In this document: positions 21,001 through 24,000 of the stretch, in pieces
Layout: each line of letters begins with the position of its first letter
Position numbering within the stretch: position 1 is the first letter of the stretch
Assembly (NCBI GenBank): GCA_964388715.1
Contig: CAYMBN010000001.1
Coordinates: 200,962-264,961, forward strand
Direction: 5' to 3'
Length of the DNA stretch: 64,000 nucleotides
From: an uncultured Methanosarcinales archaeon
Lineage (GTDB): Archaea; Nanobdellota; Nanobdellia; Woesearchaeales; CAYMBN01
Position numbers: made by a program

Positions 21001-24000
21001 AACATCTCTGAGCCATGGTGAGTGGTGGCGAATCAAGGAATCTAATTTTTCAGAAGTTGTTAGGATGAGGTCATAGTTCGCTAAGTAAGGTTCTGCACTG
21101 TCCATGTCTCCTATTGAAAGTGCGATTCTGCAGAGATGTTGGTATTTTCGTTTGAAATCTTTGAATTTTTCGTTTGCTAAGGATTTGAGTGGAACAATGT
21201 AAATGGTTTTTCCGATTCTGTTGATTATGTTTTTTAATGCAATTAGTTCTGCGATTAATGTTTTACCTGAAGCAGTTGGTGTGCAGACAAGAAGGTTTTT
21301 TTTGTCAAATAGTCCTTTGTTAATTGCTTTGGTTTGACATTTTCTTAGTTCTGCTATGTTTTCTGCTTTTAGAACTGTGTATAATTGTTCTGGGATTTGT
21401 TTTTTTATGTCTTTTAGATTCATTTTTCTTATTAAAGGGCGCCGGGGGCGGGATTTTCACCCGAGGTTCAAATCAATGAAGCCAAGATATTTGAACCCGC
21501 ATGATCCGGTGAGATCACTTAGTTCTAAACTAAGCGTCATACCAAATTAGACAACCCCGGCATTATGGAAAAGTTTAAATATGAGCTTAACTTATAATAC
21601 TTTGATCCGGTGGAGAGTCAAGGTACATACCAAATTAAGCGACCCTGGCTTTTTTTCTTTTTTTATTATTGAATTAGAATTAGTTTATATATTTTTACCG
21701 TGTTTGTCTAGTGGGGAGTGGTTATTCAACATGACCATTCTTTACTTTTTCTACTGTTACTTGTTTTAGTTGGAGGTTGTTGTAGTAGACTTTACTGTCT
21801 CTTATTTTGAGTTTTATTTTTTTGAATTCCTCGAATGTTATTTCTGAGGTGTTGTTTTTTAGGTTTTCTGGGTTTATTTGAGTGCCTGGTTTTGCTTTTG
21901 TTGTTAATATCCCTACATTTTTCTTTTTGTCAATGCCTGCTAATAACATTCCTTGGCTTTCAATTCCTCTAAGTTTAGCTGGTTTTAGGTTTGTGACTAC
22001 AATTAGGTTTTTGTTTTTTAGTTGGTCTTTTGTGTAGTAACCTTTAAGTCCTGCGACAAGTTGTCGCTTTTCTTTTCCAAGGTTGACTTTTAATATATAG
22101 AGTTTGTCTGCTTTTGGATGTTGTTTTACATCTGTTATTTTTGCTACTTTTAGATTGAGTGGGAATTTTTCTGTTGTTTTTTTGCCTGCAAACATTTTTC
22201 TGAATTTTTGCATATCTTTGTCTTCGAGTTTTTGGAATAAAACCTTTGCTTTGTTGATTTTGTGTGATTTTTTTATTGAGATTTTGTTAAGGTCTTTTAA
22301 TGTAAGGTCTTTTATGTTAAGTTGTTGTTGGATTGAAGCTGATGTTTGTGGTAAGAATGGACTGATTAGGATGCTTAGGTCTTTGACTACATTGATTAAA
22401 GTGGCTATTGTGTTTGGCGCAGTGTCTTTATTTTTCCATGGTTCGTTTTCTTGGAAATATTGGTTTGCAAGTTTGCTTATTGCCATGATTTTTCTTAATG
22501 ATTCTTTAAGTTGGATCTTTGACATTAGCTCTGTTACTTTGTCTGATTCTTGTTGTACTTTTTTTAGGAATGTTTTGTCTGGTTTAAAGTTTGGAACTTG
22601 ATTGTTGAAAAATCTGTTTGTGAATGTGATTGTTCTGTTTACTAAGTTTCCAAAGTTTGCAATAAGTTCTTTATTTAATTTTGCTTGGAAATCTTCCCAA
22701 ATAAATTCTGTATCTGTTTTTTCTGGACGGTTTACAATGATGTAATAACGCCAAACATCTGCTGCAATACCTGTTGCTTTTGCATCGTCGCCAAAAACAC
22801 CGATGTTTCTTGACTTTGAGAAATGGCCTGATTCATAATTAAGGTATTCGTTAACAGAGAGTTCTCTAACTAAAGTGTAAGGATCTTTTGTTCCTATTAG
22901 GAATCCTGGGAATAAAATTGTGTGGAATGGAATGTTATCTTTGCCCATGAACTGAACTAGTTTAACATCTTTGTTGTTTTTCCACCAGTTTTGCCAGTTA
23001 GGTTTGTGTTCTTTTGTGATTCCAATGTATCCAATAGGTGCGTCAAACCATGAGTAAAATACTTTATCTTCATATCCTTTTTTTGGCACAGGTATTCCCC
23101 ATTTAAGGTCACGTGTTATGCAACGTGGTTTAATACCTTCCTTAAGCCAGGCATAAGTCATTGTTCTTGCGTTTTCTGACCAGTTTTTTTCAACTGTTTT
23201 GATCCAGGATTTTAATTGAGGTTCAAGTTTTGGTAAGTCAATGAATAAATGGTGTGTTTCTTTTACTTCTGGGGTTGAAGAGCAGATTTTGCATTTTGCG
23301 TTGATTAATTCTGTTGCATTCAATAGTTTACCACAGTGTTCGCATTGGTCACCACGTGCTTCTTTGTAATTGCAAAAAGGACATTCGCCTTCAACAAAAC
23401 GATCTGCTAGAAATTTATTGCATTTTTTACAGAATGTTTGTTCAAGTATGTCTTCTTTGATAAAACCGTTTTTGTCGAGTTTTTTGAAAATATCAATTGT
23501 AACTTCTTTATTTGGTTTAGAGCTGGTTCTTCCGAAGCAGTCAAAGTCGCAATTGAACCAATCATAGATTTCTTTTTGGAGTTTATAGTATTTATCTGTG
23601 ATTTGTCTTGGTGTGAGACCTTCTTCTAATGCTTTTGTTTCTGTTGTGGTTCCGTGTTCATCTGTTCCGCACACGCTGATAACGTTTTCTCCTTTAAGCC
23701 TGAGAAATCTAGTATAAACATCTGCACTTAGCACGCATACCATTGTTCCAAGATGTGGCAGATTGTTTACATAAGGTAATGCGCTTGTTACGAGTATTTT
23801 TTTGGTCATACTCTGAAGAAATGAGGTTTTTATTTATAAATGTAATGATTAAATTCCTAGATATTCTACTAGTTGATTTAGGACTTTTTCAAAACGTTGG
23901 TTTACTTCATTATGAGTTATATCACAAGAAATATTTCTTAAAACATAATTCTTAGAACCTGTTCTATTAAAGTTTATGTTAACAAAATCATGGTTTATTT

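Follow-up and report, generated by a model that had tools for sequence, protein, structure and literature searches.

A serine-type class-II tRNA with the leucine anticodon UAG in a Woesearchaeales archaeon and its order-wide family of intron-containing relatives with A35 anticodons

The stretch of DNA analysed here, termed the window, comprises 64,000 nucleotides of contig CAYMBN010000001.1 (assembly GCA_964388715.1) from an uncultured archaeon of the Woesearchaeales. On its minus strand lies a class-II tRNA gene with the leucine anticodon UAG, denoted X (Table 1). A preliminary description had put the gene at 21441-21561; the place stands, while the start is off by one base, the discriminator G73 being at 21440. 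Parsing of the minus strand bears out the class-II fold, the UAG anticodon, G73, and the 36-nt T-loop intron reported there. The cloverleaf is intact and contains all standard conserved tRNA bases. A 7-bp acceptor stem built entirely of G/C pairs is followed by U8, a D arm with a 3-bp stem and a 9-nt loop, a 17-nt variable region that includes a 5-bp stem, and a T arm with a 5-bp stem and a standard T-loop, in the canonical 7/5 (acceptor/T stem) geometry. The fold z-score of the structure is −5.4. The anticodon pairs with CUA, and with CUG by wobble.

The boundary of the intron is ambiguous by one T. Cleavage by the splicing endonuclease needs a pairing that leaves 3-nt bulges, and the 3′ end of the intron together with bases of the T-loop appears to form such a helix, the bulge-helix-bulge fit being judged by eye. 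Boxes similar to the TATA-like element upstream of X occur at equal distance in the flanks of other family genes, and we infer a promoter role for it.

Table 1. Features at and around the tRNA gene X, in window coordinates
Feature	Position	Strand	Basis or remark
Whole class-II tRNA gene X, anticodon UAG	21440..21561	minus	122 nt unspliced, 86 nt spliced
5′ exon: acceptor 5′ strand, D arm, anticodon arm, variable arm, T stem 5′ strand, T-loop	21489..21561	minus	parse and alignment
Anticodon UAG	21525..21527	minus	5-bp perfect stem, 7-nt loop, U33, A37
T-loop intron, 36 nt, position 59/60	21453..21488	minus	excision restores the 5-bp T stem
3′ exon: T stem 3′ strand, acceptor 3′ strand, discriminator G73	21440..21452	minus	
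TATA-like A/T-rich box, 13-21 nt upstream of G1 of X	21574..21582	minus	by sequence reading
Truncated X-like pseudogene: acceptor 5′ strand, D arm, variable-arm-like piece	21600..21649	minus	probable remnant of a tandem copy
DEAD/DEAH-box helicase gene start	20761..21423	minus	Pfam DEAD 1.5e-31
Methionyl-tRNA synthetase gene	21722..23833 (upper end approximate)	minus	Pfam tRNA-synt_1g 3.4e-51, Anticodon_3; 703-aa open frame

The ATG of the helicase gene (21421-21423) comes 17 nt after G73 of X, and the methionyl-tRNA synthetase gene ends about 160 nt upstream. Between the synthetase gene and X, the shortened 5′ copy of the earlier account is found again; it lacks the anticodon arm, the T arm, and the 3′ strand, and is probably the remnant of a tandem copy. 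Another genome, G206, has two intact tandem family genes before the same kind of helicase gene. Sequencing datasets found comprise eight of DNA, from two studies, and none of RNA; in the four inspected, all contigs across X are identical to the window.

Standard finders pass over the gene. ARAGORN called no tRNA gene in the window, and the Rfam tRNA model (RF00005) scores unspliced X at 24.3 bits, below its gathering cut-off of 29, because the T-loop intron breaks the model. A purpose-built model, R1, gives X 113.5 bits with all 119 model positions covered. Since both standard tools are blind to genes with this intron, the family is probably absent from many annotations. With intron options, ARAGORN made many wrong calls in the host genome; our own scans gave about 35 tRNA genes, an incomplete inventory among which no canonical tRNA-Ile(GAU) was securely identified.

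The host genome has three tRNA-Ser genes (GCU, GGA, UGA) with acceptor GCCG.GG and G73, and four tRNA-Leu genes (UAA, CAA, GAG, UAG) with acceptor GCG.... and A73, as previously stated; the Ser-like body and G73 ascribed to X, and the ordinary A73-bearing tRNA-Leu(UAG) beside it, are likewise confirmed. The acceptor stem, D-loop, and long-arm geometry of X follow the Ser genes and not the Leu genes. X and the three Ser genes share a 9-nt D-loop, and in the long arm of X the stem opens with the first variable base, with a single base on the 3′ side unpaired, which is Ser-type geometry. Its discriminator agrees with all 49 true tRNA-Ser genes of the census described below. Absent from X are the arm-tip motif ..CUUAGUG.. 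(A47c, G47d), which all four Leu genes of the host carry, and the Leu-type D-arm pair G13.A22, in place of which it has U13.U22. The anticodon serves a Leu codon and no Ser codon, and two or all three of its bases differ from those of any Ser anticodon. According to PMC9976931, archaeal Ser identity is set by G73 and then by G30-C40, and Leu identity in H. volcanii by A73 with arm-tip bases. X has A30:U40, whereas G30:C40 occurs in 49/49 true tRNA-Ser genes. Judged by these sequence features, X would have a partial serine identity, with G73 and the Ser-type arm present and G30:C40 missing.

CUA and CUG behave as leucine codons in the host, in line with the unreassigned code of the preliminary description. 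The independent codon test comprised 308 CUA/CUG cells in 112 alignments of 70 ORFs. Opposite the 266 CUA cells, homologues have Leu in 59% and Ser in 3%; opposite the 42 CUG cells, the values are 74% and 0%. The Leu match of UUA and CUU is comparable, and control Ser codons stand opposite Ser in 45-48% of cells. CUA makes up 11.5% of the Leu codons (10 per 1000 codons) and so is not rare. Reassignment of CUA/CUG to serine, in favour of which only the Ser-like body of X can be named, has next to no probability and is rejected, as far as sequence can tell, by the codon test and by the canonical tRNA-Leu(UAG) with A73.

X belongs to a large family. A covariance model followed by parsing gave 146 class-II genes of the G73 type from published Woesearchaeales genomes, of which 49 are true tRNA-Ser and 97, from 44 genomes, have non-Ser anticodons. 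All 97 have a T-loop intron (every gene is at least 98 nt long). Position 35 is A in 96 of the 97 anticodons, while positions 34 and 36 vary: GAA occurs 34 times, GAU 22, CAG and GAG 12 each, GAC and AAG 4 each, UAA 3, UAG and CAA 2 each, and UAU once. The codons that these anticodons match are those for Phe, Leu, Ile, and Val, with G34 in the anticodons for Phe, Ile, and Val and all four bases at position 34 only in the CUN box. Odd members are few (one GCC anticodon, one A73, four C33). The single homologue known to the preliminary description, on contig C23 of G072, keeps its UAG anticodon, G73, shared intron site, and compensated stems, but not its place as the sole one: it had been reported from only 1 of 200 genomes, and at least 44 published genomes contain relatives. 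In the same way, X is indeed a Leu/Ser hybrid but not a singular one, UAG being 2/97 of the anticodons in an order-wide multi-gene family.

Among 151 systematically sampled genomes of 90% completeness or more, at least 31 are carriers. The family ranges across the Woesearchaeales, an order of more than 130 taxonomic families, with at least one case in a neighbouring order. Some genomes have 4-5 copies and G206 has 12, with one canonical tRNA-Phe gene each; the family genes occur alongside canonical tRNA-Phe and tRNA-Leu genes. The family is apparently undescribed, full-text searches outside subscription-only papers having turned up no description of such an archaeal tRNA family.

Covariation within the family is strong. 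In an alignment of 14 members, pairing holds in 97.8% of cells and compensatory change is seen at 16 of 23 pairs; none of 500 shuffles was as good. Together with the intact stems of X and its compensatory changes relative to the G072 homologue, this supports X as a real, intact, and maintained gene, and the earlier claim of maintenance stands. G73 (96/97), U33 (93/97), and a purine at position 37 (86/97) are nearly general; the family keeps a long arm with one unpaired 3′ base and, in most members, the 9-nt Ser-type D-loop. The arm tip ..CUUAGUG.. is kept in five parsed tRNA-Leu genes (four from the host, one from G007) and is absent from the family. Several features set the family apart from true tRNA-Ser: G30:C40 is found in 65/97 against 49/49, C38 in 56/97 against 3/49, and A8 instead of U8 in 16/97 against 0/49. 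Position 37 is a pyrimidine in 11/97, a Leu-like D arm with G13.A22 occurs in 11 of 57 members, and some have Leu-type D-loops.

Some family genes also have a leader clamp, in which four leader bases pair, with covariation, with N73 and the next three bases behind a 3-nt bulge. It is seen in 28 of 77 members scored and 2 of 41 tRNA-Ser genes, though not in X, and suggests unusual end processing; a literature search outside subscription-only papers found no leader/trailer clamp of this kind. A canonical bulge-helix-bulge formed by leader and trailer around the whole tRNA was considered and rejected, as its only recurrent parts are the 5′ bulge and the 4-bp helix, and the outer helix is mostly 0-3 bp.

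Paralogues of one genome with near-identical bodies have different A35 anticodons in the tree, and syntenic loci differ in anticodon, with UAG in the host and GAA in G206, both before a DEAD helicase, and GAA in G007 and GAG in G008, both beside a TrmB-like gene. In a tree built without tRNA-Leu, X falls among other members of the family, whose clades are intermingled with tRNA-Ser. That tree, of 98 genes and 76 columns, shows 14 changes between Ser and non-Ser labels, at least four of them forced by well-supported branches, and fits either several origins or poor resolution. Since several members fall inside tRNA-Ser clades, SerRS could hardly discriminate against them.

In all five genomes searched for synthetases, SerRS is encoded once and class-Ia enzymes by four genes, with no second LeuRS, extra class-Ia paralogue, or extra SerRS found. 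Compared with five genomes in which no members were found, four genomes carrying 4 or 5 members showed no extra EF1A-like GTPase; the host alone gave an additional match in this search, presumably a CysN-type GTPase by its N-terminal motif. Among 120 frames flanking 19 family loci, Pfam matches revealed no recurrent partner gene. An NFACT gene adjoins the G016 member, an NFACT neighbour being present at 1 of the 19 loci.

The near-invariance of A35 means that something reads the anticodon; we take this reader to be the ribosome, a protein being nearly as likely. The tentatively preferred explanation treats X as a functional class-II tRNA gene with an intron, the one intact representative in the host of a family of paralogues derived from tRNA-Ser; its tRNA would be charged by SerRS and compete weakly with tRNA-Leu(UAG) at CUA/CUG. 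The tRNA splicing endonuclease would splice the precursor, and the single SerRS would charge the mature tRNA on account of its G73 and Ser-type arm and its lack of the archaeal LeuRS elements, A73 and the arm-tip motif. Its competition with the canonical tRNA-Leu(UAG) would be weak or conditional, and the outcome a low-level Leu-to-Ser ambiguity under an unchanged code. While sequence rules predict SerRS charging, the restriction to A35 anticodons and the high copy numbers speak against a plain misreading as Ser. Delivery of serine would favour anticodons of small or polar residues, yet 96/97 are those of hydrophobic codons, and efficient Ser decoding at 4-12 copies beside a single tRNA-Phe seems untenable. 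The frequency of CUA, the incomplete G30:C40 (A:U in X), and the Leu-like D arms of some members also speak against this explanation, and C38 and pyrimidine 37 hint at poor or no decoding. In yeast, tRNA-Ser with GAA or GAU is lethal upon accumulation (PMC6125640). Only slightly less probable, and likewise tentative, is a tRNA that is produced, and probably serylated, yet mainly non-decoding, its anticodon loop with A35 being a protein recognition element. A factor of the NFACT/Rqc2 type might, for instance, use the tRNA to extend stalled chains without mRNA; the tRNA might pass its amino acid to a non-ribosomal acceptor; or it might act, before the downstream mRNA, as a processing signal of tRNA shape. 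A protein reading position 35 would fit its near-invariance beside variable 34 and 36; the loop is relaxed relative to tRNA-Ser (C38, pyrimidine 37, C33), as is U8, and high copy numbers would be harmless if the ribosome were avoided. The leader clamp, the 17 nt between X and the helicase start codon, and the NFACT gene beside the G016 member are consistent with such roles. Against them stand the lack of a conserved partner in the flanks or of an extra EF1A-like factor in the member-rich genomes, the normal decoder usage at position 34, the mostly kept U33 and purine 37, and the absence of the clamp from X itself.

That the family carries a hydrophobic amino acid, through LeuRS or an anticodon-matching synthetase, is unlikely, although it would be the simplest account of the A35-only set and the tolerated copy numbers. 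X would then be a second, odd tRNA-Leu(UAG), and drift among A35 anticodons would be nearly neutral. IleRS, ValRS, MetRS, and PheRS all use A35. Yeast LeuRS uses it in vitro (PMC9976931), and nematode nev-tRNAs, whose anticodons are those of Gly or Ile, accept Leu alone (PMC3333845); the Leu-like D arms and D-loops of some members point the same way. However, the parsed Leu, Val, and Phe tRNAs of these genomes have A73 where the family has G73, the Leu arm tip is missing, no second LeuRS or class-Ia paralogue was found in the five genomes, and many bodies are indistinguishable from true tRNA-Ser, so SerRS should charge them anyway. It is improbable that the Woesearchaeales maintain a further set of adaptors, charged by SerRS and spanning the entire U-middle column (Phe, Leu, Ile, and Val codons), with X as its CUA/CUG member, held in check by intron or leader processing and weak decoding loops, and on release recoding hydrophobic positions to serine proteome-wide. 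If they did, serine recoding might be a regulated stress, dormancy, or conflict device in host-dependent archaea. The degraded copy directly upstream and the rare odd members would fit a neutral or decaying tRNA-Ser duplicate with a mutated anticodon, but this is very improbable for X, given intact stems with compensatory changes, an anticodon two or three positions away from every Ser anticodon, and a family conserved over many taxonomic families with A35 constrained.

Natural tRNAs with mismatched body and anticodon are rare test cases for the unambiguity of the code, and actinobacterial tRNA-ProX is another of them. In CUG-clade yeasts, tRNA-Ser(CAG) has reassigned CUG and no competing tRNA-Leu is left. 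Like X, it combines a serine-type body with a CUN-box leucine anticodon, whereas X has U33 rather than G33, a tRNA-Leu(UAG) is present, and CUA/CUG sit at Leu positions. The nev-tRNAs (Hamashima et al. 2012, PMC3333845) are also lineage-specific class-II tRNAs with mismatched anticodons beside a normal tRNA set and without reassignment, but derive from tRNA-Leu and carry Leu; the present family is archaeal, Ser-derived, and G73- and intron-bearing, with A35 in 96/97. Bacterial allo-tRNAs (Mukai et al. 2017, PMC5389517) are discussed as missense suppressors or regulatory RNAs. They share SerRS-type identity with many non-Ser anticodons, the (9/3) type including UUA/UUG/CUA/CUG Leu anticodons, yet have 8/4 or 9/3 geometry and anticodons for 35 codons, in contrast to the 7/5, archaeal, almost purely A35 family. 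What sets the X family apart is that it is archaeal, order-wide, present in up to a dozen copies, and almost confined to one code column. To our knowledge, no SerRS recognition rule predicts A35-only anticodons. Either serine at hydrophobic codons is tolerated or exploited, or the charging or use of a tRNA of serine shape follows a way not yet recognized. Yeast experiments suggest that such a pattern should be lethal: engineered tRNA-Ser with GAA or GAU, the design of many family members, kills when it accumulates (Zimmerman et al. 2018, PMC6125640). Those variants are artificial, whereas the natural family persists in up to 12 copies per genome.

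The gene X is a complete class-II tRNA, and it is almost certainly a real structured gene. Its 7-bp G/C acceptor stem is followed by U8 and by a D stem of three pairs and one U.U, with a 9-nt D-loop in which G18 and G19 are present. The anticodon stem is a perfect 5 bp, and its 7-nt loop contains U33, the anticodon UAG, and A37. The variable region of 17 nt forms a 5-bp stem with a single unpaired 3′ base, and the G/C-rich T stem of 5 bp carries a standard T-loop. A 36-nt insert separates the T-loop from the 3′ strands of both the T and the acceptor stem, which precede G73. The preliminary description had placed X correctly, with an interval one base short, as G73 lies at 21440.

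With its T-loop interrupted by the insert, X scores only 24.3 bits against the Rfam tRNA model (cut-off 29), and ARAGORN calls no tRNA gene in the window, X included. The 3′ end of the insert pairs with T-loop bases to leave 3-nt bulges, which we take to follow the archaeal bulge-helix-bulge cleavage rule and which therefore places the intron at 59/60. Such introns are common in this genome, G000 (12 of roughly 28 tRNA genes recovered by our own scan). The window holds five further tRNA genes with introns (Ser-GCU, Ser-GGA, Val-GAC, Leu-UAA, and Met-CAU), all of them missed by ARAGORN; only Met-CAU reaches the Rfam gathering score. Read depth rises over a 38-nt stretch (21684-21722) between the MetRS stop codon and a truncated X-like copy. 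With 2-4 differences, this stretch recurs in the same metagenome runs on several further contigs; a short repeat or a small mobile element is the probable explanation.

Features of the window and Ser and Leu tRNA genes of G000 (C, contig)
Feature	Location	Strand	Remark
X, whole gene	window 21440-21561	minus	complete class-II tRNA by sequence reading from 21561
Truncated X-like copy	window 21600-21649		acceptor 5′ strand, D arm, arm-like piece, nothing more
tRNA-Ser GCU	window 13808-13923		intron-containing
tRNA-Ser GGA	window 46095-46247		intron-containing
tRNA-Ser UGA	C9		
tRNA-Leu UAA	window 52058-52199		intron-containing
tRNA-Leu GAG	C2:46089-46192		with introns, hand parse
tRNA-Leu CAA	C4		
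tRNA-Leu UAG, canonical	C3		
tRNA-Val GAC	window 48252-48374		intron-containing
tRNA-Met CAU	window 61410-61531		intron-containing

The scan and pattern searches yielded three tRNA-Ser and four tRNA-Leu genes in G000. All three Ser genes share the acceptor GCCG.GG, a 9-nt D-loop, and G73, and all four Leu genes share the acceptor GCG...., a Leu-type D arm (G13.A22), A73, and an arm tip with UUAGU. X matches the Ser pattern in acceptor, D-loop, G73, and arm, which bears out the earlier assignment as Ser-type and not Leu-type. It also has the intron site of Ser(GCU) and part of its intron sequence. One Ser feature is absent: X has A30:U40, versus G30:C40 in all three Ser genes. With intron options, ARAGORN called the Leu(GAG) gene as tRNA-Phe(gaa) and C10:42072-42215 as tRNA-SeC(tca); both calls were rejected, the latter being tRNA-Arg(CCU) with introns by hand parse. 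Three clustered intron-bearing genes at C8:41027-41415 have the identities Val-UAC, Gly-GCC, and Ile, the last with anticodon UAU; AUA thus appears to be read by a tRNA with UAU instead of one with a modified CAU.

A BLAST search of 400 genomes of the order with X gave weak matches. On parsing, these proved to be class-II genes with G73, a T-loop intron, and the anticodons UAG, CAG, GAG, GAA, GAU, and GAC. Fourteen parsed members align well: 97.8% of cloverleaf cells are paired and 16 of 23 pairs show compensatory change, while none of 500 shuffles was as good and slid controls were 37-51% paired. A covariance model built from the 14 was run over G000, 40 relatives, 150 genomes of the order (at least 90% complete), and 150 genomes of a phylum sample. 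Among the matches listed, all those of at least 95 nt in published genomes were fetched and aligned to the model, and anticodons were read from its columns. The resulting census, from published genomes only, comprises 146 class-II genes, of which the 97 with non-Ser anticodons come from 44 genomes. An interim tally of 78 genes from 39 genomes included one gene of the unpublished G205, which is outside the 97 and supports none of the claims made here. We are highly confident that X belongs to a conserved family.

Census of 146 class-II genes
Feature	True tRNA-Ser (49)	Non-Ser anticodon (97)
Anticodons	GCU 25, UGA 11, GGA 10, CGA 3	GAA 34, GAU 22, CAG 12, GAG 12, GAC 4, AAG 4, UAA 3, UAG 2, CAA 2, UAU 1, GCC 1
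A35	0/49	96/97
G73	49/49	96/97
U33	49/49	93/97
Purine at 37	49/49	86/97
C38	3/49	56/97
A8 replacing U8	0/49	16/97
G30:C40	49/49	65/97
Intron-bearing length	37/49 (other 12 at most 90 nt)	97/97 (all at least 98 nt)

Two partial genes (in G282 and G241) also have A35. The sole exceptions, at L232 (G430:C16) and L222 (G206:C16), are one Ser-like GCC gene and one A73 member with GAG; the GCC (Gly) anticodon is one change from GCU.

The family occurs in at least 31 of 151 genomes of a systematic sample, a lower bound that leaves out 17 further matches, two unpublished genomes, and most intron-less 82-86-nt matches; the 12 short matches read were all tRNA-Ser. One member belongs to a different order of the same class (G406). 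G000 has a single copy, six other genomes (G051, G109, G008, G072, G007, and G042) have 4-5, and G206 has 12, some in tandem. At L013:684-1601 (G051), a frame of the phage integrase family, a tyrosine recombinase, touches or overlaps a family gene, and at L005:1011-1379 (G251) an HNH endonuclease gene adjoins another; certain copies may lie at integration sites. An NFACT/Rqc2-type gene (L033:1623-2411, G016) directly adjoins a GAU member, at just one of 19 loci, so this adjacency may be chance.

In a tree of 98 genes, built without the anticodon loop and the intron, family members cluster but do not form one clade. Fourteen changes of Ser/non-Ser label are required, compared with a mean of 31.6 after shuffling, and well-supported branches force at least four of them. 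X falls in a 21-gene clade, nearest to the UAG and CAG genes of G072 (76% identity); a long arm of 17-21 nt, the T stem G-C-G-G-G, and a C-rich trailer are seen in many genes of this clade. Bodies in other family clades are nearly identical to local tRNA-Ser genes, and the family is very probably tRNA-Ser-derived with G73 retained. Nearly the same body carries different A35 anticodons within G058 (AAG and GAA) and within G051 (GAA, GAG, and GAU). At syntenic loci, UAG before the DEAD helicase in G000 corresponds to GAA twice in G206, and GAA beside a TrmB-like gene in G007 to GAG in G008. Thus positions 34 and 36 change readily and 35 almost never; there is little doubt that A35 is under selection.

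Canonical tRNAs coexist with the family, which therefore adds to the normal set and does not replace it. G000 has the canonical tRNA-Leu(UAG) and, on C6, a class-I tRNA-Phe(GAA) with A73; G206, G016, G007, and G008, each also with GAA or GAU members, have equivalents of the latter. In G000, CUA accounts for 11.5% of the Leu codons and for 10 per 1000 of all codons. Residues opposite G000 codons were read from alignments of 70 G000 ORFs with ORFs of fetched loci in other genomes (112 BLASTP alignments, at least 35% identity), with cells that are not independent and homologues all from the same order. Homologues have Leu at 59% and Ser at 3% of 266 CUA cells, and 74% and 0% of 42 CUG cells; UUA (834 cells) gives 62% and 1%, and CUU (651 cells) 58% and 2%. 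The Ser codons UCU, UCA, and AGU (311-478 cells each) give Leu 1-3% and Ser 45-48%. To the extent that sequence can tell, reassignment of CUA/CUG to Ser is excluded, and the code is in all likelihood unchanged, as previously proposed.

According to PMC9976931, archaeal SerRS depends on G73 and then on G30-C40, and Haloferax volcanii LeuRS on A73 and arm-tip bases. By these published rules, X should be a substrate of SerRS and is predicted not to be one of LeuRS. Every genome checked has exactly one SerRS gene, and none has an extra class-Ia synthetase. G000 encodes a 418-aa EF1A-like GTPase (C5:10767-12023; GTP_EFTU, 175.7 bits) that has no counterpart in the four further family carriers checked; the N-terminal motif is presumably of CysN/NodQ type, and the protein is unrelated to the family.

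Three facts argue against ordinary misreading by Ser. The anticodons are precisely those where Ser is most harmful, copy number reaches 12, and G30:C40, kept by every true tRNA-Ser, is lost in one third of the family. In yeast, tRNA-Ser with a GAA or GAU anticodon is lethal on accumulation, according to PMC6125640. Given these three facts, three readings rank close together. The tentative first choice is that the family is serylated and acts as a weak or conditional mis-decoder. Recognition of the A35 loop by a protein, with the RNA either serylated or uncharged, is somewhat unlikely, and charging with Leu or another hydrophobic residue is doubtful. No account of archaeal tRNAs of this kind emerged from full-text literature searches; their nearest published counterparts are nev-tRNAs (PMC3333845), allo-tRNAs (PMC5389517), and engineered yeast tRNA-Ser variants (PMC6125640).

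The gene flanks may also bear on processing. Family genes encode C74 in 57 of 78 cases, tRNA-Ser genes in 9 of 41. Of 77 family genes scored, 28 have leader bases -7 to -4 that pair perfectly with N73 and the next three bases, compared with only 2 of 41 tRNA-Ser genes; the three bases preceding G1 then form a bulge. The helix occurs in 13 distinct covarying versions (for example at loci L004, L009, L029, L030, and L003) and may mark a special 5′-end processing route. X has the C-rich trailer and lacks the pairing leader.
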